Sequence record: OZ035800.1
Source: Felixounavirus LF82P5
Direction: 5' to 3' (one strand)
Length of the DNA: 64,000 nucleotides
Below, in pieces: positions 2,608 through 63,411 of the stretch; positions within the stretch are counted from its first letter, which is position 1, and each line of letters opens with the position of its first letter. The notes under the pieces are model-generated. The model saw nothing but the letters and a program-made list of their open reading frames with translations. It made no database searches and was not told the origin of the DNA. The position numbers were made by a program, and so were the translations under genes.

Positions 2608-3153
2608 TCAAAAGTGTCCTTTTACTTGTGGAACATAAATTTCAAAAGTTGCTTTACCATCCTCTGATGGTTTTGACTGTACCTTTGTAAATACACGGTT
2701 ATCATACAGCTTCTCAAAGAAGTTTTCAAAAGGTAAATGCACAGTAGCCTCTTCAGTAACTTTATGGAAGACTGTATGGAACACCACACCAGCATACGGT
2801 AAAGCATTGACAAGGACACCTGCACCACCAATTACAAAGACATCTTCATCAATAGAGCTATCAAGATACTTCAAAAATGCTCCAAAGGATTCTTTGCTGG
2901 CCTTAGCATACATTACACCATCTTTGCCAAAATCTATACCTAAGTATGGTACAGAATTTGTTAAGATTAGGTTTGCACGTTCTGGTAGAGGTTTACTACC
3001 CAGAGTCTTAAAAGTCTCATTACCCATGACTACTAAGTTATTTTTAGTGAGTCTCTTAAACTCTTGCATGTCCTGTTTATGTCGAGGCCACGGCATACCA
3101 GTCGGTGTACCAAATTCACCGTTTTCACCACTTGCAAATATTAGTTTAATCAT
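2608..3153 (-). CDS. folA: dihydrofolate reductase
   Basis: 181 aa; DHFR-like N-terminus (MIKLIFA...GxxGxMPW) and size; next to thyA. Confidence 0.8.
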   Translation of the reverse strand: MIKLIFASGENGEFGTPTGMPWPRHKQDMQEFKRLTKNNLVVMGNETFKTLGSKPLPERANLILTNSVPYLGIDFGKDGVMYAKASKESFGAFLKYLDSSIDEDVFVIGGAGVLVNALPYAGVVFHTVFHKVTEEATVHLPFENFFEKLYDNRVFTKVQSKPSEDGKATFEIYVPQVKGHF

Positions 3154-3410
3154 TTTGTAAACCCTTTCTTAATGAACCAGTTGATGACACTCTTCACAAC
3201 TTTACTACGATGGTAGATAAAATGTGGAGATGGTTGGTATGAACCATAAGCCCAGAAAGCGATAATTTCATTACACCCTGTGCATCGGGTACTTTCTTCA
3301 GCAATATGACCGTTGACTATTTCACTTACCTCACCTTGTAAGTCTGTACACCCGCAATGTGGACAACGGATAGGTGTTCCATCAGACTCATAGCAGTGTT
3401 CAATTTTCAT
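3150..3410 (-). CDS. zinc-ribbon protein
   Basis: 86 aa with CPHCGC...CTGC cysteine pairs; ATGA overlap with folA start. Confidence 0.45.
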   Translation of the reverse strand: MKIEHCYESDGTPIRCPHCGCTDLQGEVSEIVNGHIAEESTRCTGCNEIIAFWAYGSYQPSPHFIYHRSKVVKSVINWFIKKGFTK

Positions 3411-3926
3411 CTATTTAACCTCAAAAACTGGTTCAAGAACCAATATAAAGTCTACACAGTCATCTTCTTCATCCAGAATACCATCAAAGTTCTTAGGTAC
3501 AAAGTCGAAGAGGCTCATAGAATATCGGTCAGAAGTAACCCTGATAGTGTTCCCTATATTCTCTACAGTTAATATTGTACGGCTTTCTGTTACCTCACTT
3601 AGAAGATTACTCACAAAGTCATCTAAGAAGTGTTTCATCAGTGACTTGAAGCCTTTAGGGTAATCTGTACCAGAGTATGTTTCAATCTGAGGAACAAGCT
3701 TAACATTTATACTAGTCTTTGTTAAGAACGTTTTAGAGAACATGCTATCAGGTAGCTTACAAACAGTCTTTCCAGTACCTTCATGTTCAATCTCAACAAA
3801 ACCAGCTTCGTCGCCACATGTAACTATTTTAAAAGATGCTTCATTCTCATACTGTGAAGCCATAAACTTTTTAAGCATTTCTTTAAGGAAATCTGCATGA
3901 GCATCTTGTAAGTAGATATCAATCAT
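3411..3926 (-). CDS. hypothetical protein
   Basis: 171-aa ORF tightly packed in the minus-strand operon. Confidence 0.45.
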   Translation of the reverse strand: MIDIYLQDAHADFLKEMLKKFMASQYENEASFKIVTCGDEAGFVEIEHEGTGKTVCKLPDSMFSKTFLTKTSINVKLVPQIETYSGTDYPKGFKSLMKHFLDDFVSNLLSEVTESRTILTVENIGNTIRVTSDRYSMSLFDFVPKNFDGILDEEDDCVDFILVLEPVFEVK

Positions 3927-3939
3927 AGTTAATCACCTA

Positions 3940-4299
3940 TTATGGGAACAAGCACTTAATGTCATCGTTTTTGAAAACAAAACTTGTGTAGTTGTGGCCA
4001 TCAACATCCAACCAAACAGCCTGAACATCCACACCATCAAGATTGTGGTAAAGTTCTTTGATGAAGTGGTCTTTCACAATCTGGCTGCTAGTTGTTTCCA
4101 GCTTAATGTTCGAGATTGCTGAACCTACAGCCATATAGCCCATGACCCGTTTCTTCTCAGTATGCTTAATCTTACCATCTTTGTAAGCCATAATGAGATT
4201 GGAAAGAATTTTTACACCATAATACTTTTCAAGGTGAGTAGGTACACCATAAAAGCCTAATGCGAAGTTTTCAGAGTGGATAATGTTTTCACGTTTCAT
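3940..4299 (-). CDS. hypothetical protein
   Basis: 119-aa ORF, same orientation and packing as neighbours. Confidence 0.45.
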   Translation of the reverse strand: MKRENIIHSENFALGFYGVPTHLEKYYGVKILSNLIMAYKDGKIKHTEKKRVMGYMAVGSAISNIKLETTSSQIVKDHFIKELYHNLDGVDVQAVWLDVDGHNYTSFVFKNDDIKCLFP

Positions 4300-56652: not shown

Positions 56653-58068
56653 ATGAGCGAGTTATTTAAACATGCGCACCTTCATGCAGGTCGAACTGAA
56701 AATGGTGCTGTAAACCATACTTCATCAATGTCTGCTCTGGTAGACTTCTACAAAGCCGCTGGCTCAAGCCGTAGCAATGTAGAAATCTTACCAGACCTGT
56801 TCTACAAAGCTTTGCGTGAGGATGTTGATGTTGCAGTTCGTATTTTACTGCATATGCGAGATGTACGAGAAGGTATGGGTGAGCGTAAAGCTTTCCGAAC
56901 TGTTTTACTTCAAGCGATTGAAGATAAAGTTTTAGAGCCTACACAGGTTCTTCGCATTATGGACAAGATTGCAGAACTTGGTCGTTTTGATGACTTCAAA
57001 ATCTTCGTAGGTACTCGTTTCGAGACAGATGCCTTCAAACATTTAGAAGCAGCATTACTAGACCCTGCAACAGCAGGTTTAGCAGCTAAGTGGTTGCCAC
57101 GAGTAAAACCACGCCACAAACAGTTTGTAAAACGTTTCTGTAAGTTTGCAAACTTAAGTGAGAAGGAGTATCGCACACTGTTATCTGCACTGTCTGATAC
57201 GGTTGAGCAAAAAATCTCTGCGAATGAGTTTGGTAAGATTGACTACAGCAAGATTCCTTCACTCGCTGCTGCACGTTACCAAAAACTCTTTAACCGTAAA
57301 GATGGGGAACGTTACAAAGCTTACATCGAGTCACTCTCAAAAGGTGAGTCTAAGATTAACGCTGGTGCTGTTTACCCATACGATGTGATTAAATCTATTA
57401 AGTATGGTAATGCAGATGTTGCTAATGAGCAGTGGAAAGCACTTCCAAACTGGATGGCAGAAGGTGAAAACATCTTGTGTATGACTGATGTTTCAAGCTC
57501 AATGTCTTGGGTGAATCTTGGCTCAATTACTGCCCTTGATATTGGTGTATCACTTGCCTTATATGTAGCAGAACGCAATACAGGTTGCTTTAAAGATGAG
57601 TTAATGGTCTATTCAACAAACCCTCATTTCATTGAACTGAGTGGTGATTTACGAAACCGTCATCGTCAGGTAATGCGTCATGTTGAATATGGTTCAACTA
57701 ACTTACAAGCAGCTTTTGACCGTATTCTTGAGATAGGTAAGAGAAACAACTTGACTCAGAAAGATATGCCAAGTAAGCTTATCATCTTCTCCGATATGGA
57801 GTTCAATCAGGTTGATGGAGCTAACGGTCGTACAAACTTTGAAGCAATTCAGAGTAAGTACAAAAAAGCTGGATATGAGATGCCACAACTAGTATTCTGG
57901 TACTTAGCAAACCGTAATGGTACTTGCGAAGTGTCTGTTAAGGATAATGGTGTAGCAATGGTATCAGGGTTCTCTCCAGCCACTTTAAAAGCTCTGCTTG
58001 GTGGTGAGAAGTTTGACCCAATCAGCGTAATGCTCAAAGCAGTAATGATTGACCGTTACATCTGGTAA
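56653..58068 (+). CDS. vWA-domain protein with N-terminal helical domain (possibly Ro60/TROVE-like)
   Basis: 471 aa; MIDAS-type DxSxS (MTDVSSSMS) with downstream Thr and LIIFSDMEF; helical N-terminal half; directly upstream of the tRNA array. Confidence 0.45.
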   Translation: MSELFKHAHLHAGRTENGAVNHTSSMSALVDFYKAAGSSRSNVEILPDLFYKALREDVDVAVRILLHMRDVREGMGERKAFRTVLLQAIEDKVLEPTQVLRIMDKIAELGRFDDFKIFVGTRFETDAFKHLEAALLDPATAGLAAKWLPRVKPRHKQFVKRFCKFANLSEKEYRTLLSALSDTVEQKISANEFGKIDYSKIPSLAAARYQKLFNRKDGERYKAYIESLSKGESKINAGAVYPYDVIKSIKYGNADVANEQWKALPNWMAEGENILCMTDVSSSMSWVNLGSITALDIGVSLALYVAERNTGCFKDELMVYSTNPHFIELSGDLRNRHRQVMRHVEYGSTNLQAAFDRILEIGKRNNLTQKDMPSKLIIFSDMEFNQVDGANGRTNFEAIQSKYKKAGYEMPQLVFWYLANRNGTCEVSVKDNGVAMVSGFSPATLKALLGGEKFDPISVMLKAVMIDRYIW

Positions 58069-58086
58069 AAAGTTTTAAAAAGGGTA

Positions 58087-58115
58087 TTGACAATGTGTTT
58101 GATACCCTTTAATAT
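58087..58115 (+). promoter_or_regulatory. sigma70-like promoter for the tRNA array
   Basis: TTGACA-17 nt-TAATAT; the -35 is embedded in the inverted repeat AGGGTAT...ATACCCT. Confidence 0.55.
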
Positions 58116-58233
58116 GTTCTACATAGAAACGAAATGAGAGCTTTTCTAAGATACTGAAAAATATTTTAAAAAAGTTCTTGACAACCACTAAAAAATAATG
58201 TTAAAGTGGTTACATAGAGTTTGAAAAGTTTAT

Positions 58234-58310
58234 CTCTGTTTAGCTCAGCTTGGTAGAGCGTTCCGTTTGGGGCGGTAAGGCCGGAGGTTCAAGTCCTCCA
58301 ACAGAGACCA
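58234..58310 (+). tRNA. tRNA-Pro (anticodon TGG)
   Basis: Hand-folded cloverleaf: acceptor CTCTGTT/AACAGAG, D-stem GCTC/GAGC, anticodon loop TTTGGGG, T-arm GGAGG-TTCAAGT-CCTCC, encoded CCA. Confidence 0.6.
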
Positions 58311-58317
58311 AATTAAT

Positions 58318-58395
58318 GTTCCAGTAGACAAAATGGTAAAGTCACCACTCTTTCAAAGTGGATATTTGAGGGTTCAAATCCCTTCTGGAACGCCA
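58318..58395 (+). tRNA. tRNA-Glu (anticodon TTC)
   Basis: Acceptor GTTCCAG/CTGGAAC, anticodon stem CCACT/AGTGG, loop CTTTCAA, T-loop TTCAAAT, CCA. Confidence 0.65.
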
Positions 58396-58402
58396 GTTTT
58401 GA

Positions 58403-58475
58403 CAGAAGACCAATTGCAGCAAACTTAATCTTATTCATCTGACACGAAATCGGACAAAGAAGAGATTTGGTCTGG
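58403..58475 (+). ncRNA. stem-closed structured element E1 (candidate small RNA)
   Basis: 5' CAGAAGACCAATTGCAGCAA ... 3' TTTGGTCTGG; 7-bp closing stem AGACCAA/TTGGTCT. Confidence 0.35.
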
Positions 58476-58486
58476 TCATTAAGAAT

Positions 58487-58563
58487 TGCGGGTATAGAGA
58501 AAGGGCGTCTCACATGTCTCATTAGCATGGTATCGGCAGGTTCGACTCCTGCACCCGCCTCCA
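58487..58563 (+). tRNA. tRNA-Met (anticodon CAT)
   Basis: Anticodon stem CATGT/GCATG, loop CTCATTA, T-arm GCAGG-TTCGACT-CCTGC; U1-C72 mismatch in the acceptor stem. Confidence 0.55.
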
Positions 58564-58569
58564 ATTTTG

Positions 58570-58629
58570 CAGAAGACCGTATTCAGCAACAAAATACTTT
58601 TTGCGGATAAAAGAAAAAACACGGTCTGG
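58570..58629 (+). ncRNA. stem-closed structured element E2
   Basis: 5' CAGAAGACCGTATTCAGCAA ... 3' CACGGTCTGG; closing stem AGACCG/CGGTCT. Confidence 0.35.
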
Positions 58630-58640
58630 CAATGTATTAA

Positions 58641-58717
58641 GGTTAGGAAGCACATAAGGTATGTGCGGTCGCCTGTTAAGCGAATGGCACAGGGTTCGAA
58701 TCCCTGACTAACCGCCA
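58641..58717 (+). tRNA. tRNA-Asn (anticodon GTT)
   Basis: Acceptor GGTTAGG/ACTAACC, D-stem GCAC/GTGC, loop CTGTTAA, T-arm CAGGG-TTCGAAT-CCCTG, CCA. Confidence 0.6.
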
Positions 58718-58726
58718 AATTTAAAT

Positions 58727-58814
58727 GTGTCGTTATCCCGTAGATGGTAGCGGTGGGGACTGTAAATCCCTTGTCATTGAGACTCGGTAGGTTCGACTCC
58801 TACACGGCACACCA
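58727..58814 (+). tRNA. tRNA-Tyr (anticodon GTA), long variable arm
   Basis: Anticodon stem GGGGA/TCCCT, loop CTGTAAA, 14-nt variable arm, T-arm GTAGG-TTCGACT-CCTAC, CCA. Confidence 0.6.
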
Positions 58815-58820
58815 AATAAA

Positions 58821-58898
58821 GGTTATGTAGTTTAATCTGGTTAAAATACTCCCCTGTCACGGGAGATGATGAGGGTTCAAATCCCTTCGTAACCGCCA
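58821..58898 (+). tRNA. tRNA-Asp (anticodon GTC)
   Basis: Anticodon stem CTCCC/GGGAG, loop CTGTCAC, T-arm GAGGG-TTCAAAT-CCCTT, CCA. Confidence 0.65.
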
Positions 58899-58985
58899 AA
58901 TTATAATAAGTATTTCAAGATGATGTTTTGAGATGGCTATTTAGCCCCTCCCTTAAAGAGTTCTTACGAGTATTCTTTAAAGGAG

Positions 58986-59062
58986 CAGAAGACCAAATTC
59001 AGCAAGTACGTATGATATTTTCAAGCCAATTTAATTTTGAAAAAATTTAAAACTTGGTCTGG
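58986..59062 (+). ncRNA. stem-closed structured element E3
   Basis: 5' CAGAAGACCAAATTCAGCAA ... 3' ACTTGGTCTGG; 7-bp closing stem. Confidence 0.35.
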
Positions 59063-59075
59063 CTCAACAAATTTA

Positions 59076-59207
59076 CAGAAGACCGTTTACAGCAAAACTT
59101 AAACAATCTATTTCTCCGGTAAAGAAAAGGCGAAGGTTCGATTCCTTCACTCGGCAGATGTCGAGTTGGTGTAATGGTAGCACTTAAGATGATAAACAAC
59201 GGTCTGG
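59076..59207 (+). ncRNA. stem-closed element E4 with embedded permuted tRNA-like module (candidate Y-RNA-like RNA)
   Basis: 8-bp closing stem AGACCGTT/AACGGTCT; inner helix CTTAA/TTAAG; T-arm GAAGG-TTCGATT-CCTTC; acceptor-like helix ACTCGGC-AGAT-GTCGAGT capped by a 4-nt loop; D-arm GTGT-AATGGTA-GCAC. Confidence 0.4.
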
Positions 59208-59356
59208 TAATTATCTTTGTAGATAAGTTATTAAGCTTACCTGTGAGTATGCGACCACAAAGGGTGAAAGGGTAAATTCTAGATTTAAACCCAACAAGGC
59301 ACATCGCTACAGACCTTAAGCAAGTCTGGGTAGCTTATCTACAAAGATAATTTAAT

Positions 59357-59432
59357 GGAAGTGTAGCAGAATGGTGATGCGGCAGACTTTTAATCTGACA
59401 GGCGATGGGTTCGAATCCCTCCACTTCTACCA
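59357..59432 (+). tRNA. tRNA-Lys (anticodon TTT)
   Basis: Acceptor GGAAGTG/CACTTCT, anticodon stem CAGA/TCTG, loop CTTTTAA, weak T-stem, CCA. Confidence 0.5.
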
Positions 59433-59436
59433 ATAT

Positions 59437-59513
59437 GGTTCAGTCGCAGATAAGGTAATGCAGGGGTCTCATAAGCCCTATGAATGTGGGTTCGATTCCC
59501 ATCTGAACCTCCA
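59437..59513 (+). tRNA. tRNA-Met or tRNA-Ile2 (anticodon CAT)
   Basis: Acceptor GGTTCAG/CTGAACC, loop CTCATAA, T-arm GTGGG-TTCGATT-CCCAT, CCA. Confidence 0.55.
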
Positions 59514-59514
59514 A

Positions 59515-59590
59515 GCTGGTATAGTTAAGAAGGTTATAACACTCCCCTGATAAGGGAACATCGGTGGTTCGATTCCACCTACCAGTACCA
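59515..59590 (+). tRNA. tRNA-Ile (anticodon GAT)
   Basis: D-stem GTTA/TAAC, loop CTGATAA, T-arm GGTGG-TTCGATT-CCACC, CCA. Confidence 0.6.
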
Positions 59591-59605
59591 ATTTCAATAA
59601 AGTTG

Positions 59606-59634
59606 TTGACATTGAGATGTGACCACTTTATAGT
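59606..59634 (+). promoter_or_regulatory. internal sigma70-like promoter within the tRNA array
   Basis: TTGACA-17 nt-TATAGT. Confidence 0.5.
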
Positions 59635-59837
59635 AACCTTAGTTTTCGTTGCGTAGCGTCTATTTTGCAAATTTAAAATAAATGCAAACGACAATGTTTT
59701 TCTGGCAGTAGCTTGATAGGCTAAACACCAGTGAGGTCTTCCAATCCCTCATCAAAGAATTTGGCGTACTCGCCCACGGTATGATTAATAAGGTGGGCAT
59801 CTTTAAGGGCTTTCTAAGAGAGTCTTTAAAGATTAAT

Positions 59838-59914
59838 GCACCCTTAGTTCAATTGGATAGAGCAACGGTCTTCTAAATCGTTAGTTACAGGTTCGAATCC
59901 TGTAGGGTGTGCCA
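59838..59914 (+). tRNA. tRNA-Arg (anticodon TCT)
   Basis: Acceptor GCACCCT/AGGGTGT, D-stem GTTC/GAGC, loop CTTCTAA, T-arm ACAGG-TTCGAAT-CCTGT, CCA. Confidence 0.65.
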
Positions 59915-60062
59915 AATAGTTAGCAGATTGCTTAGACGACCTTATCGGGTCTCCGTGTAAGGAGGTGGTCTGTATCTCATGTTTTCCAGAACATGTAAAT
60001 AATCTGAGAAGGGGCTTTACAGTGTTGCGAAAATACGGTAAGCTTCGAATTATAGTTTTAAT

Positions 60063-60133
60063 AGGGGTGAGCTATGGCAGCAATAGAGTCTCCAAAATTC
60101 TTGATTAGAGTTCGAATCTCTACACCCCTGCCA
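60063..60133 (+). tRNA. tRNA-like sequence with degenerate anticodon arm (possible pseudogene)
   Basis: Good acceptor AGGGGTG/CACCCCT, D-stem CTAT/ATAG and T-arm TAGAG-TTCGAAT-CTCTA, but no pairable anticodon stem and only about 68 nt. Confidence 0.3.
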
Positions 60134-60147
60134 GAACAGGTGCTTGT

Positions 60148-60552
60148 ATGAAACTTTGTAGAAAATGTTCTCAAGAAAAGCCTTTAAGCTGCTTTCATAA
60201 AAGAGGTAATGGCTATCAGTCTGCTTGCAAAGATTGTAAAGCTAAGTACTCAGCAAAGAGATACAAAGAAGACCCTACTTATAAAGCAAAAAGAAAAGTT
60301 AGGGCGAAATATGACAAAAAGAGGAACAGAGAGTTCCTTAGTAGATATAAAAAGTTTTGCAAATGCAGAATATGTGGCGAATCTGAGCCAGTAGCTTTGG
60401 ATTTTCATCACTTAGACCCTAAAGAGAAAGATTTTGCTCCAAGCAATCTTAAGACTTACTCTAGAGGCACTATTAAGCGTGAAGTCCGTAAGTGTGTTGT
60501 GCTTTGTTCAAACTGTCATAGGAAAGTTCATGCAGGACTGTTAAGTATTTAA
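60148..60552 (+). CDS. HNH endonuclease embedded in the tRNA array
   Basis: 134 aa; Cys-rich zinc-binding N-terminus and HNH core DFHHLDPKEKDF...CSNCHRKVH. Confidence 0.7.
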   Translation: MKLCRKCSQEKPLSCFHKRGNGYQSACKDCKAKYSAKRYKEDPTYKAKRKVRAKYDKKRNREFLSRYKKFCKCRICGESEPVALDFHHLDPKEKDFAPSNLKTYSRGTIKREVRKCVVLCSNCHRKVHAGLLSI

Positions 60553-60565
60553 CAGTCTTATTAGG

Positions 60566-60655
60566 GGTAGGTAGCGGCTAATGGCAGCCAAACAGTCTTG
60601 AAAACTGTTGCCACTGTAGAGATACGGTGAGGGTTCGACTCCTTTACTTACCGCC
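60566..60655 (+). tRNA. tRNA-Ser (anticodon TGA), long variable arm
   Basis: Anticodon stem ACAGT/ACTGT, loop CTTGAAA, roughly 20-nt variable arm, T-arm GAGGG-TTCGACT-CCTTT. Confidence 0.6.
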
Positions 60656-60811
60656 TAATAAGATTTAAAGCCAAGCTTCATTCGGATGTTGCTTTGGTAT
60701 CCCTCGTGTATTGTCGTACACGCACAGTAAAGCACCTAGTAGGTGTCACGGAGAAGAGATAATATCAAGCTCTCCAAAGGTTCTAGTCACCGGATTAAAC
60801 AAGACTATGCA

Positions 60812-60832
60812 AAGACCAAATTAGGTCTTTTT
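60812..60832 (+). terminator. hairpin plus T run inside the tRNA array
   Basis: AGACC-AAATTA-GGTCT followed by TTTTT. Confidence 0.4.
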
Positions 60833-60911
60833 AGAGGGCTTCTAAGGTTATTACAGCTTGTTGTGGAACCTTGTTGCTTAGGTTCTTAGAAGTTCTCTAA
60901 AAAGATTTAAT

Positions 60912-60988
60912 GCACCTATAGCCCAATTGGTAGAGGCAGCAGACTTAGAATCTGCTCAGTGTGAGTTCGAATCTCTCTAGGTGTACCA
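60912..60988 (+). tRNA. tRNA with Leu-type anticodon TAG, short variable arm
   Basis: Acceptor GCACCTA/TAGGTGT, Leu-like D-arm GCC-CAATTGGTAGA-GGC, 6-bp anticodon stem AGCAGA/TCTGCT, loop CTTAGAA, 5-nt variable region. Confidence 0.45.
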
Positions 60989-60995
60989 AATTAAT

Positions 60996-61071
60996 GCAGG
61001 TGTAGCAAAATGGTTATGCGGCTGACTCTTAATCAGTAAGACGATGGGTTCAATTCCCTCCACCTGTACCA
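60996..61071 (+). tRNA. tRNA-Lys (anticodon CTT)
   Basis: Acceptor GCAGGTG/CACCTGT, loop CTCTTAA, same weak T-arm as the other Lys tRNA, CCA. Confidence 0.5.
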
Positions 61072-61077
61072 AACATT

Positions 61078-61153
61078 GGGGTCATAGTTTATATGGTTAA
61101 AATTCGAGTTTTGCAAACTTGGGAACTGAGTTCAATTCTCAGTGACTCCACCA
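61078..61153 (+). tRNA. tRNA-Ala (anticodon TGC)
   Basis: Anticodon stem CGAGT/ACTTG, loop TTTGCAA, T-arm CTGAG-TTCAATT-CTCAG, CCA. Confidence 0.55.
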
Positions 61154-61159
61154 ATTAGT

Positions 61160-61234
61160 GCATCCATAGTTTAAACGGGAAAATTACAGTCTTCCAAACT
61201 GAGGTTGAGGGTTCGATTCCCTCTGGATGCTCCA
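61160..61234 (+). tRNA. tRNA-Gly (anticodon TCC)
   Basis: Acceptor GCATCCA/TGGATGC, loop CTTCCAA, T-arm GAGGG-TTCGATT-CCCTC, CCA. Confidence 0.6.
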
Positions 61235-61241
61235 AATTAAT

Positions 61242-61317
61242 GCTCCTATCGTATAATTGGCTATTACGGTTGCCTTGTAAGCAACTTATCAGGGTTCGAA
61301 TCCTTGTGGGAGCACCA
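61242..61317 (+). tRNA. tRNA-Thr (anticodon TGT)
   Basis: Anticodon stem GTTGC/GCAAC, loop CTTGTAA, T-arm CAGGG-TTCGAAT-CCTTG, CCA. Confidence 0.65.
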
Positions 61318-61321
61318 ATTC

Positions 61322-61408
61322 AGAGGTCAAGTGAAAGACCGCTTTGAGTCAACTGAAGACCGTAACAAATCCCACGGAGTTGAGTTAGCGGCACAACTTC
61401 AGACCTCT
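61322..61408 (+). ncRNA. stem-closed structured element E5
   Basis: Perfect 7-bp closing stem AGAGGTC/GACCTCT enclosing about 73 nt with two AGACCG motifs and internal hairpins; no T-loop. Confidence 0.3.
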
Positions 61409-61413
61409 TTCAT

Positions 61414-61488
61414 ACTCGCTTAGTTTATATGGTAAAACATCACCCTTACAAGATGAAGAAAAAGGTTCAAGTCCTTTAGTGAGTACCA
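61414..61488 (+). tRNA. tRNA-Val (anticodon TAC)
   Basis: D-stem GTTT/AAAC, loop CTTACAA, T-arm AAAGG-TTCAAGT-CCTTT, CCA. Confidence 0.55.
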
Positions 61489-61489
61489 T

Positions 61490-61567
61490 GTTCCAGTATC
61501 CCAATTGGCAGAGGATGCAAGCTCAAACCTTGTACTAGTGACGGTTCGAATCCGTCTTGGAACACCA
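61490..61567 (+). tRNA. tRNA with Leu-type anticodon CAA, short variable arm
   Basis: Leu-like D-arm TCC-CAATTGGCAGA-GGA, anticodon stem GCAAG/CTTGT, loop CTCAAAC, T-arm GACGG-TTCGAAT-CCGTC, CCA. Confidence 0.45.
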
Positions 61568-61572
61568 ATTTT

Positions 61573-61648
61573 GCAGGATTAGTTCAAATGGATAGAGCAA
61601 CAGTCTACGAAGCTGTTAATAGGGGTTCGAATCCCTTATCCTGCGCCA
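61573..61648 (+). tRNA. tRNA-Arg (anticodon ACG)
   Basis: Acceptor GCAGGAT/ATCCTGC, loop CTACGAA, T-arm AGGGG-TTCGAAT-CCCTT, CCA. Confidence 0.6.
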
Positions 61649-61667
61649 ATTTAAAGAGGCTATTTAG

Positions 61668-62225
61668 ATGAGATATTTGAAGTATGCTTCATGGATTTTC
61701 TTAGCTTTGTTAGAGCCATTTGCAGCAATCTTAGCAGTTATCTTAGCACCTTTCGTAGTTCCATTCTACAGTGAGAAGAAAGGACATCTCCCTTTTGGAT
61801 TCAGATGGATGGAGACATATGACAACCAAATTGATGGTGATAAAGGTCATGTCGAACGATGGGCTAAGATTAGAAAGATTGGTAAGCTTGGTGTCTATAT
61901 GCAGAGAGTTGGTTGGCTCTGGAGAAACAAAGCTTATAACTTCTCTTACCATGTGTTAGGAAGAGATGTAAAAGATGTTACTAAGTGGAAAGGCAATATC
62001 AATGTAAGTTCTAACCCTGAAGATAATCAGACAGGTTATCTCCTAATGTGGAACAGTAATGCTTGGGGATTATTCGCTTTTGTACCATCAATTAAAATCT
62101 TTGGTAAACAATTCTACTGGAGAATTTATGTTGGGTGGAAACTTAAAAGTGTTGTCCCAGAAGAAAGGGCATTCTCAAGGGAAAGAGTTATGTTGGCATT
62201 CTTTATTCATCCACTAAGAAAATAA
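61668..62225 (+). CDS. membrane protein of unknown function embedded in the tRNA array
   Basis: 185 aa with AGAGG Shine-Dalgarno; hydrophobic N-terminus (WIFLALLEPFAAILAVILAPFVVPF). Confidence 0.5.
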   Translation: MRYLKYASWIFLALLEPFAAILAVILAPFVVPFYSEKKGHLPFGFRWMETYDNQIDGDKGHVERWAKIRKIGKLGVYMQRVGWLWRNKAYNFSYHVLGRDVKDVTKWKGNINVSSNPEDNQTGYLLMWNSNAWGLFAFVPSIKIFGKQFYWRIYVGWKLKSVVPEERAFSRERVMLAFFIHPLRK

Positions 62226-62233
62226 AGATTTAA

Positions 62234-62309
62234 AGGGGATTAGTTTACAAGGTTAAAACCTCGGTCTTTGAAATCGAAGAAGTTGGTTCAATTCCAACAT
62301 CCCCCGCCA
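62234..62309 (+). tRNA. tRNA-Gln (anticodon TTG)
   Basis: D-stem GTTT/AAAC, anticodon stem TCGGT/ATCGA, loop CTTTGAA, T-arm GTTGG-TTCAATT-CCAAC, CCA. Confidence 0.55.
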
Positions 62310-62583: not shown

Positions 62584-62658
62584 TAGTCCAAGTAGCTTAT
62601 ATGGTTAAAGCGCGTGTCTGAAAAACATGAGAAGAGGGTTCAAATCCCACTGGACTAC
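62584..62658 (+). tRNA. tRNA-Phe (anticodon GAA)
   Basis: Perfect acceptor TAGTCCA/TGGACTA, loop CTGAAAA, T-loop TTCAAAT; D-arm register uncertain. Confidence 0.45.
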
Positions 62659-62676
62659 CAATTTCAAAGGTGCTTA

Positions 62677-63411
62677 ATGAAAGAGATGACAGAACAAGGT
62701 AAGGAGATTTTTAATCTCTTAAAAACCGGTAGAGGGTTTTCTAATCCCCTTATTACTGGTGCAGCAGTTCTCGGTGGAACCGTAGCTGCCTCTACATCAC
62801 TTGTAAGCTCTATTAGCTCTGTATCAGACCCTACAGTAAAGGATAAGCTTGTTGCTGCTGGACTTACAACAGTTCTGCTTAACAGCTTTACCACGAGTCT
62901 GACAAGCACTACATCAACTACCAAAACACTAACAGATTACGGTCAAAAGTCCATTGATGAGTTTTCATCACGTATGCAGGTAGCAAAAGGTTACTCTAAT
63001 GTTATGGGTGCAGCAGGTGAACAAGTTGGCTGTACACCATTTAGTGGTATTATGGGTGTTGCTACAGAGTATGGTCAAAAAGCTATTGACACGATTAACA
63101 GTACACTAGATAGTGTTAACGATGTGTTAAGTGACTTACAAGATGCTATTGATAAGGGTCTTGATACTGTTTCTGATTTAGCTAACCAAGCTGTTAGTAA
63201 GATTAATGAAGGTATCTCAAAGATTACAGCTTATGCAGATGAAGTTGTGCAGATGATTGAAGAAGAAGCTGCCCTTATTGCAGAGTACCTTAAAACGAAT
63301 ATCAATGGGTTCTTAGCAGGTATCTTACCAGACTGGTTTGATGATGCCTGTAAAACTGGTGTAATTGACACTATTGCAACACCAGAAATGAAGAGCGCAT
63401 TACAGAAATAA
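62677..63411 (+). CDS. Ser/Thr-rich protein of unknown function
   Basis: Track ORF begins with GTG inside tRNA-Phe; start moved to ATG 62677 with AAAGG Shine-Dalgarno. Confidence 0.45.
   Translation: MKEMTEQGKEIFNLLKTGRGFSNPLITGAAVLGGTVAASTSLVSSISSVSDPTVKDKLVAAGLTTVLLNSFTTSLTSTTSTTKTLTDYGQKSIDEFSSRMQVAKGYSNVMGAAGEQVGCTPFSGIMGVATEYGQKAIDTINSTLDSVNDVLSDLQDAIDKGLDTVSDLANQAVSKINEGISKITAYADEVVQMIEEEAALIAEYLKTNINGFLAGILPDWFDDACKTGVIDTIATPEMKSALQK

Follow-up and report, generated by a model that had tools for sequence, protein, structure and literature searches.

The window analyzed here is a 64,000-nucleotide (nt) stretch of DNA from Felixounavirus LF82P5 (OZ035800.1), and we investigated an element at positions 60063-60133 of it, within a cluster of transfer RNA (tRNA) genes. 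An earlier note, made from the letters alone, had described this element as a tRNA-like sequence with well-formed acceptor, D- and T-arms and no anticodon stem. ARAGORN identified 27 tRNA genes between 58234 and 63585, which together cover all 20 amino acids, and one of them is a tRNA-Trp(CCA) gene on the plus strand at exactly 60063-60133. This gene is the only tryptophan (Trp) tRNA gene of the cluster, and its anticodon, at gene position 30, is the earliest in the cluster. A local 301-nt search with Rfam matched the element to the tRNA model RF00005 with a score of 33.2 bits (E=2e-05; gathering score 29), and no Rfam family besides tRNA matched the region. The encoded RNA is 68 nt long, which is the length estimated earlier, and is followed by an encoded CCA (71 nt in all); it reads AGGGGUG A GCU AUGGC AGC AAU AGAGU CUCCAAA AUUCU UGAU UAGAG UUCGAAU CUCUA CACCCCU G CCA. 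It lies between the conserved tRNA-Arg and tRNA-Ser genes and, as had been reported, just upstream of a gene for an HNH endonuclease, with which it makes up a cassette (Table 1).

Table 1. Features at and around the tRNA-Trp locus, in positions of the window (ORF, open reading frame; aa, amino acids; bp, base pairs)
Feature	Position	Strand	Evidence or remark
Putative sigma-70-like promoter, TTGACA-17-TATAGT	59606..59634	+	Consensus scan, 11/12 matches; upstream of tRNA-Arg, tRNA-Trp, HNH gene and tRNA-Ser
tRNA-Arg(tct)	59838..59914	+	ARAGORN, Rfam, alignment; conserved left flank of the slot
tRNA-Trp and HNH cassette, allele A, 497 bp	60057..60553	+	Alignments, BLAST
tRNA-Trp(CCA), compact D-arm	60063..60133	+	ARAGORN; Rfam RF00005, 33.2 bits; type C model R2, 47.6 bits
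Acceptor AGGGGUG	60063-60069	+	7 Watson-Crick pairs with CACCCCU, 60123-60129
Compact D region	60070..60084	+	RNAfold stem; lowest-energy cloverleaf; aligned to type C GGUC/UUGGC/GACC/AGU
A8	60070	+	
Predicted D-stem GCU/AGC	60071-60073/60079-60081	+	
D-loop AUGGC	60074-60078	+	
Linker AAU	60082-60084	+	
Anticodon arm	60085..60101	+	AGAGU 60085-60089 / AUUCU 60097-60101; loop CUCCAAA 60090-60096; CCA 60092-60094
Variable loop UGAU	60102-60105	+	Sequence, Rfam, ARAGORN
T-arm UAGAG-UUCGAAU-CUCUA	60106-60122	+	Sequence, Rfam, ARAGORN
Discriminator G73	60130	+	Sequence
Encoded CCA	60131-60133	+	Sequence
Spacer, 14 nt	60134..60147	+	Shine-Dalgarno-like AGGTG 60138-60142; precedes HNH start codon
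HNH endonuclease gene, free-standing, 134 aa	60148..60552	+	ORF; PHROG 2255
tRNA-Ser(tga)	60566..60655	+	ARAGORN, Rfam, alignment; conserved right flank of the slot

Structure of the tRNA-Trp gene

The acceptor strands AGGGGTG/CACCCCT, the complementary segments CTAT (60072-60075) and ATAG (60083-60086) and the T-arm TAGAG-TTCGAAT-CTCTA are all present as the earlier note had described them. Its statement that no 5-bp stem with a 7-nt loop could form between the D- and T-arms did not hold, because A23 and G24 had been assigned to a 4-bp D-stem. When these two bases are given to the anticodon arm, they pair with U39 and C38, and a 5-bp stem, AGAGU/AUUCU, is formed with one G.U pair. The loop closed by this stem, C32-U33-CCA-A37-A38, is the canonical one for Trp and has the expected U33 and purine 37. 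Both ARAGORN and the Rfam tRNA model draw the 5-bp stem. The outcome that the note had named as refuting its reading was largely obtained: ARAGORN recovered a tRNA-Trp(CCA) in a different register, although the result is not a fully canonical tRNA.

We compared the possible cloverleaves by their energies in ViennaRNA. The cloverleaf with the 5-bp anticodon stem and a D-stem composed of G9-C19, C10-G18 and U11-A17 had an energy of -17.9 kcal/mol, and leaving out the D-stem raised it to -15.4 kcal/mol. The register of the earlier note, with a 4-bp D-stem and a 3-bp anticodon stem, reached -13.3 kcal/mol.

The acceptor arm (a 7-bp stem with discriminator and CCA), the anticodon arm (5 bp and 7 nt) and the T-arm (a 5-bp stem and the T-psi-C loop consensus) conform to the canonical cloverleaf. 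The abnormal part is the D-arm, not the anticodon arm, and the element is indeed short and structurally unusual for a tRNA, as had been noted. In the D-arm, position 8 is A where U is canonical, a single connector base takes the place of two, and a predicted 3-bp stem closes a 5-nt loop, AUGGC, in which GG alone of the canonical D-arm features is kept; this GG normally docks on the T-loop. ARAGORN paired only U11-A20 and G9.U22 in this arm, and the Rfam alignment placed three deleted positions on the 5' side of the D-stem.

The gene has the same acceptor pairs 1-5, G73, CCA, CUCCAAA loop on a 5-bp stem and UUCGAAU T-loop as Escherichia coli trpT and the 76-nt tRNA-Trp of Erwinia phage Rouille. 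Besides the departures at position 8, the connector and the D-stem, it differs from trpT in being 5 nt shorter, in a 5-nt D-loop that lacks A14, in a 3-nt linker before the anticodon stem and in a 4-nt variable loop. tRNA-Pyl and mammalian mitochondrial tRNA-Ser(UCN) have one base between the acceptor and D-stems and a 5-nt D-loop, and they make up for this by an anticodon stem of 6 bp and a variable loop of 3 nt. The window gene is unlike both in its 5-bp anticodon stem, its 3-nt linker, its 4-nt variable loop, the GG of its D-loop and its standard T-loop.

Sequence constraint, Trp identity and the type C element

A search with an 86-nt query (60055-60140) matched 22 Ounavirinae records with 96.5-100% identity. 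Carriers from Felixounavirus and Suspvirus, genera that differ by ~14% overall, were aligned, and within the 71 nt of the gene they vary at a single site, T13A (60075), in the five records of the phiSUSP1 group; the 14-nt spacer downstream has 2 variable sites. T13A falls in the D-loop of the compact model and breaks the pair U13-A21 of the D-stem drawn in the earlier note, and in ViennaRNA it left the register with the 5-bp anticodon stem unaffected and weakened the earlier one. Between the window and phiSUSP1 the tRNA-Trp gene differs at 1 of 71 positions, compared with 77 of 405 in the HNH gene (Fisher p=3.5e-5), and among the remaining tRNAs of the cluster the identity varies from 57% to 100%. 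All pairs of the acceptor, anticodon and T-stems are intact, and we found no relaxed substitution rate of the kind expected from a pseudogene; this constraint contradicts the earlier suggestion of a decayed tRNA. The alignment with the homologous position in relatives, which the note had called for, showed that the tRNA is nearly invariant in the 22 carriers and that most relatives contain a different element there.

The published Trp identity elements are the anticodon C34 C35 A36, G73, A1-U72 and the pairs 2-71 to 5-68 (PMC9976931). This set of determinants for tryptophanyl-tRNA synthetase (TrpRS) is fully present in 60063-60133 and identical to that of E. coli trpT, the two having in common A1-U72, G2-C71, G3-C70, G4-C69, G5-C68, G73 and the whole loop CUCCAAA. 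A reading of UGA by this tRNA was considered and rejected, as TGA ends 15 of the 62 long ORFs and in-frame extensions after TGA are no longer than those after TAA or TAG, in a crude comparison of ORFs only. The Hirsh suppressor is the known case in which an altered D-arm lets a tRNA-Trp read UGA.

Covariation inside the group of carriers could not be assessed, since they differ at 1 site in 71 nt, and searches for diverged relatives or a canonical donor returned little. Two patterns run against viral contigs found the same phages and one unrelated canonical tRNA-Trp only, the one match from a metagenome scan was due to chance and is no tRNA, a genome scan gave Vibrio matches only, and BLAST against E. 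coli genomes gave no match. The one Vibrio match that was inspected is a 3' fragment of a tRNA-Trp. It stands isolated on a Vibrio renipiscarius contig (1023-1049 of the examined stretch), ~650 nt downstream of an intact tRNA-Trp, and has the appearance of an attachment site duplicated by an integrated element.

Viral contigs were also scanned with a pattern in which the Trp anticodon loop had to lie closer than usual to the start of the acceptor. Apart from carriers already known, the hits comprised an element of the Pseudomonas phages KPP10 and PAO1_Ab03, which we refer to as type C. In KPP10 the element is 73 nt long (4010-4082 of the examined stretch), and it is present in 48 Pseudomonas phage records, 41 of them at 99% identity or above (all those listed being KPP10-like) and 7 at ~78%, including Otagovirus M5.1. 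Type C is never annotated as a tRNA in the GenBank records examined, where it is either unannotated or covered by a 'hypothetical protein'; ARAGORN made no call on it, and its Rfam score was 17.8 bits. KPP10-like phages have been published with tRNA-Asn, tRNA-Tyr and tRNA-Gln only (PMC4309531). In an alignment of four divergent copies, 98.8% of the cells of the cloverleaf were paired and 5 pairs had compensatory double changes, these being located in the acceptor, anticodon and T-stems; the D-stem was invariant.

Type C and the window gene have in common a short D-stem placed by the acceptor stem, a 5-nt D-loop NUGGC (UUGGC in type C and AUGGC in the window, with AAGGC in phiSUSP1), a 3-nt purine-rich linker before the anticodon stem (AGU or AGG in type C and AAU in the window), the loop CUCCAAA, G73 and CCA. 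Type C differs in having no connector base after the acceptor stem, where the window gene has A8, a 4-bp D-stem (GGUC/GACC, compared with GCU/AGC), a G-U-rich acceptor stem that starts with G1-C72 and a 5-nt variable loop. We built a covariance model, R2, from the four type C sequences alone and searched the window and six other loci with it. The best score belonged to 60063-60133, at 47.6 bits over model positions 1-73, and the R2 alignment placed GCU/AUGGC/AGC/AAU onto the D-arm of type C. Lower scores were obtained for the 71-nt tRNA-Trp of an uncultivated virus genome (UViG; 37.9 bits), the next-best tRNA of the window (29.4 bits), a Vibrio phage tRNA-Trp (25.3 bits) and the Erwinia phage tRNA-Trp (19.7 bits), and E. 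coli trpT gave no hit at an E value of 1 or below. The top score of the window gene provides independent support for the compact register and for the view that the short D-arm is a plan kept up by the phages and not a product of damage.

The mobile cassette and the alternative allele

The protein encoded downstream of the tRNA-Trp gene matched PHROG 2255 'HNH endonuclease' (E=1.5e-45), and it matched Pfam HNH families below their cut-offs only. Its gene has 43 synonymous and 17 nonsynonymous codon differences from that of phiSUSP1 and, judged from these counts, is under purifying selection. HNH proteins with at least 80% amino acid identity were found in exactly 22 phage records. A 1-kb query with both genes matched both of them in 22 records, over at least 80% of its length in 21 and over 75% in one; the tRNA and HNH genes are thus strictly linked (22/22), and the adjacency pointed out earlier is meaningful. 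The earlier proposal of a tRNA disrupted by endonuclease activity is not supported by the arrangement, in which the HNH ORF starts 14 nt past an intact CCA end and the abnormal D-arm is at the 5' end, ~70 nt from the junction.

Alignments and BLAST placed the limits of the cassette at 60056/60057 and 60553/60554, 6 nt before the tRNA and 1 nt past the HNH stop codon, boundaries that coincide exactly with the ends of tRNA-like elements. The 1-kb stretch around 60063-60133 is 100% identical to LF82_P5 and 94-99% identical to wV8, TH10 and other phages, and the identity is unevenly distributed. In wV8 and a UViG, both carriers, the cassette is 99-100% identical to that of the window and the adjoining flanks are 88-95% identical. 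In the carrier VpaE1_ev78, a cassette of 99-100% identity has a left flank of 99.7% (333 nt aligned) and a right flank of 91.8%, and in phage ekra the cassette is absent next to a left flank of 99.6%. This mosaic pattern indicates that the cassette moves independently of its background. VpaE1_ev78 and VpaE1_ev035, which differ in the presence of the cassette, were considered as isogenic laboratory derivatives; their flanks are only 96-97% identical, so they are different phages.

We next describe the slot between the conserved flanks, which is dimorphic. The tRNA-Trp and HNH cassette (allele A) occupies it in 22 records and a different element (allele B) in 236, and the numbers for each organism are compatible with two mutually exclusive alleles. 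Phage ekra and most relatives have neither the allele A tRNA nor the HNH gene and contain instead, between identical flanks, the 84-nt allele B, which bears a Trp anticodon as allele A does. Its sequence can be written as (A/G)UGGGACG AUGUUAAGA C(U/A)C UAAGGCAU G(A/U)G ... C CUCCAAA A ... GGGG UUCGAAU CCUC CGUCCCAU G CCA, and copies are located at 3358-3440 of the ekra locus and 721-804 of the Felix O1a locus (coordinates of the examined stretches). Among the matches listed, allele B is annotated as a tRNA in none of 40. ARAGORN made no call in the loci scanned, and Rfam gave only 23 bits, to the tRNA-Sec model.

We aligned seven divergent copies of allele B from Felixounavirus, Mooglevirus, Suspvirus and a Pectobacterium phage. 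The results showed a cloverleaf of 20 pairs in which 140 of 140 cells were paired and 8 pairs had compensatory double changes, compared with 33-56% pairing and zero double changes in control registers slid by 1-3 columns. In this geometry the acceptor stem has 8 bp and the T-stem 4 bp, and the connector of 8-9 nt is invariant. Felix O1a has allele B, with a score of 106 bits under a model of this allele (R1); its anticodon loop is UUCCAAC instead of CUCCAAA, a variant that departs at positions 32 and 38 and retains the CCA anticodon. In the paper on the Felix O1 genome, 22 tRNAs are reported, none of them for Trp, and the wV8 paper lists 23. Erwinia phage Rouille, an outgroup within the same subfamily, has its ordinary tRNA-Trp elsewhere in its cluster.

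The possibility that allele A is a decayed allele B was rejected: its R1 score of 27.5 bits is exceeded by those of several unrelated tRNAs (up to 39 bits), and true members scored 93-106 bits. A score no better than that of unrelated tRNAs indicates that one Trp tRNA gene was replaced by a different one, and the core motif of allele B is absent from the window. Bacterial and phage tRNAs with an 8-bp acceptor stem and a 4-bp T-stem (8/4) have been described for Ser and His (Mukai et al., PMC5389517); we found no report in the literature of an 8/4 tRNA for Trp. Allele B has the same 8-bp acceptor stem and 4-bp T-stem as these allo-tRNA-type molecules, making a 12-bp branch, and differs in its Trp anticodon, the lack of a long variable arm and the invariant 8-9-nt connector. 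The window gene, with its standard 7/5 geometry, does not belong to this class. In Pectobacterium phage Wc4-1, the ORF next to the 3' end of allele B has no detectable homology to the HNH protein of the window.

HNH paralogues adjoin tRNA genes in other phages, lying between tRNA-Gly and tRNA-Thr in Felix O1a and directly after tRNA-Arg in a Pseudomonas phage. In relatives, independent insertions of nuclease genes are concentrated within a few hundred bases around tRNA-Arg, tRNA-Trp and tRNA-Ser; examples are an endonuclease VII-like ORF after tRNA-Arg (2736-3083 of the VpaE1_ev78 stretch) and other HNH genes (Felix O1a gp44 at 191-583 and gp46 at 1501-1914 of the examined stretch). The closest known parallel is SegB, a free-standing GIY-YIG endonuclease encoded in the T4 tRNA cluster, which recognizes a tRNA T-psi-C motif and, in mixed infections, drives its own transmission together with that of the tRNA genes around it (PMC2330249; see also PMC13096335). 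As with SegB, the window has a nuclease gene among phage tRNA genes that is present or absent between close relatives and is co-inherited with the adjacent tRNA. In contrast to SegB, for which cleavage and biased inheritance were demonstrated, the window nuclease belongs to the HNH family and both activities are presumed for it, and its cassette swaps one Trp tRNA-like gene for another structure instead of adding tRNAs.

Other observations were made in the same region. The 148-nt spacer between tRNA-Arg and tRNA-Trp (59915-60062) is 95% identical to that of phiSUSP1 and contains no Rfam match and no convincing ORF. Within it, at 59958-59978, is a single-copy 21-mer, TAAGGAGGTGGTCTGTATCTC, that includes a perfect Shine-Dalgarno sequence and is found exactly in Felixounavirus, Mooglevirus, Suspvirus and Kolesnikvirus loci. 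It is followed by a hairpin (~59979-59996) that has one sequence in the window and another in the Erwinia phage and whose pairing, judged by eye, is retained. Compared with the window, phiSUSP1 contains 127 additional nt just past tRNA-Arg(tct) (~1211-1337 of the examined stretch), which end in a tRNA-like 3' half, GGTTCGACTCCTACCTTGAC-TGCCA. ARAGORN made no call on this insertion, and it may be another non-canonical or interrupted tRNA.

Elsewhere in the cluster, tRNA-Met (58487-58563) and tRNA-Tyr (58727-58814) were called by ARAGORN and missed by an Rfam run over the whole window at the gathering threshold; in the Felix O1 genome paper, tRNA-Met (no. 3) has a Cove score of 28.9 and tRNA-Tyr (no. 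5) is marked 'Pseudo'. Together these results indicate that several tRNAs of the cluster, not tRNA-Trp alone, are atypical. A 265-aa ORF (62614-63411) overlaps the 3' part of tRNA-Phe (62585-62660), as does the homologous coding sequence of ekra, and its true start codon may lie further downstream.

Proposed function and competing explanations

We propose that 60063-60133 is probably a working compact-core tRNA-Trp(CCA) gene and one half of a 497-bp mobile module, a reading to which we give a probability of roughly 60%. What the analysis shows directly is the structure and its register, the constraint on the sequence, the allelic replacement, the strict linkage to the HNH gene and the mosaic spread of the cassette. 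Expression and use of the tRNA would then proceed as follows. The gene would probably be transcribed with its neighbors from the promoter-like site upstream of tRNA-Arg, and no plus-strand terminator-like site is listed downstream of that site within 58000-62300, suggesting a single transcript that would comprise tRNA-Arg, tRNA-Trp, the HNH mRNA and tRNA-Ser. The usual enzymes of tRNA processing would excise the tRNA from this precursor, as with the rest of the cluster. Since the identity set is intact, host TrpRS would be expected to charge it by recognizing its anticodon and G73 together with the first pairs of the acceptor stem, and the charged tRNA would read UGG. An engineered D-armless tRNA, 'mini HisT', is accepted by E. 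coli HisRS, EF-Tu and the ribosome, although its degradation by PNPase limits its use (PMC11551756), which suggests that a reduced D-arm would in principle be no bar.

For the spread of the module, we infer a homing process. The HNH endonuclease would most likely cut phage genomes that have the alternative allele at the slot, and during co-infection repair from the HNH-carrying genome would copy in both the HNH gene and the tRNA, replacing the resident Trp tRNA-like gene. Such biased inheritance would parallel the spread of T4 SegB with its neighboring tRNA genes, and the divergent tRNA sequence would shield carriers from self-cleavage.

Several points weigh against this proposal. Folding without constraints gave a minimum-free-energy structure (-21.6 kcal/mol) other than a cloverleaf, a result that we treated as uninformative. 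The D-arm lacks U8 and A14, and its D-stem GCU/AGC is a prediction from energy and by analogy; no covariation was found for it, the carriers being invariant there and the D-stem of type C likewise. The gene is a borderline call for general tRNA models, as the Rfam run over the whole window at the gathering threshold reported 24 tRNAs and omitted it, and ARAGORN made no call on the T13A copy in phiSUSP1. Several GenBank records already give the label tRNA-Trp, and some others give tRNA-Pseudo or tRNA-OTHER, the latter in the case of wV8. Allele A is dispensable, because only 22 of ~260 related phages carry it, and selfish HNH drive could carry a poorly functional passenger. Finally, the conservation of the gene could reflect a cis role in HNH expression and not translation.

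In one alternative explanation, the element is a decayed tRNA-Trp pseudogene that has lost ~3-4 nt from the 5' side of the D-arm and hitchhikes, without working, with a selfish HNH gene. Compared with a Vibrio phage tRNA-Trp and the Rfam model, the missing bases are on the 5' side of the D-stem and D-loop and the spacing on the 3' side is canonical, and the low or borderline scores, the 'Pseudo' labels and the restriction to a minority of relatives are in keeping with it. Homing drive is also able to carry neutral or mildly harmful passengers (PMC2330249). The pseudogene explanation nevertheless fits poorly, because of the constraint on what is the sole Trp tRNA of 27 and because its other arms and all its identity elements are intact: a single difference in the tRNA stands against 77 in the adjacent HNH gene, between genera ~14% apart overall. 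Moreover, the compact plan is conserved in distant Pseudomonas phages, whose model ranks this gene above any canonical tRNA. We regard decay as improbable. Still more remote, and in our judgment very improbable, is the structure drawn in the earlier note, with a 4-bp D-stem CUAU/AUAG and no functional anticodon stem, as part of a structured element of another kind. Its four D-stem pairs can form, but the fold is 4.6 kcal/mol less stable than the alternative cloverleaf, T13A breaks one of the pairs in five records, and ARAGORN, Rfam and the type C model all choose the 5-bp anticodon stem. No other Rfam family matches, and an element of another kind is not needed.

A tRNA-shaped RNA or DNA element selected for a role other than decoding is unlikely too, though slightly less so than decay. 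Three such roles were considered: a processing handle, in which cleavage by RNase P and at the 3' end sets the 5' end of the HNH mRNA; an altered HNH target site, by which carriers would be immune; and a decoy or replacement against a host factor that acts on tRNA-Trp. Such roles are favored by the HNH start codon 14 nt past the CCA end, with no promoter-like site between, and by the strict linkage in all 22 carriers. Recognition of the T-psi-C motif by SegB shows that tRNA genes can be homing targets (PMC2330249), and defenses that target tRNAs, as well as phage tRNAs that counter them, are documented (PMC13096335, PMC12916289). However, neither a handle nor an immunity site needs an intact Trp anticodon loop, G73 and the full TrpRS determinants, and a gene with a Trp anticodon fills the slot in both alleles. 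Type C keeps the same plan with no HNH gene in the short stretches around the loci examined, where no systematic search was made. Each of these roles is also compatible with a tRNA that decodes as well.

By its sequence, then, the element is a true tRNA-Trp gene that is under constraint and has a compact D-arm, and not an anticodon-armless relic. What appears to be undescribed is its non-canonical architecture, the recurrence of the compact class, the strict linkage to a mobile HNH gene and the replacement of an unannotated, non-canonical Trp tRNA-like gene; we found no description in the literature of the structure of this compact tRNA, of allele B or of type C. If the tRNA is charged and decodes UGG, it would be a natural reduced-D-arm tRNA that works on E. 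coli ribosomes, a kind that the engineering study treats as unknown in bacteria (PMC11551756). The cassette offers a clean natural case for the reshuffling of phage tRNA sets by homing endonucleases, in which a tRNA variant may serve as target-site immunity.

The results also point to a blind spot in annotation. Conserved, covariation-supported Trp tRNA-like genes are present at this slot in 236 phage genomes, Felix O1 included, and at a related slot in 48 Pseudomonas phage genomes, and because no record examined annotates them as tRNAs the published counts omit Trp (22 tRNAs in Felix O1 and 3 in KPP10-like phages). A broader and tentative possibility, which we consider doubtful at present, is that Felix-O1-related myophages of enterobacteria and Pseudomonas have systematically swapped the standard tRNA-Trp for non-canonical ones, of the compact-D-arm or the 8/4 long-connector type, that are charged and used. 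Such tRNAs would escape an action directed at the canonical tRNA-Trp body, for example a host defense that targets tRNAs or a phage-induced turnover of host tRNAs, and standard gene finders would then be missing non-canonical Trp tRNAs in ~300 sequenced phages.

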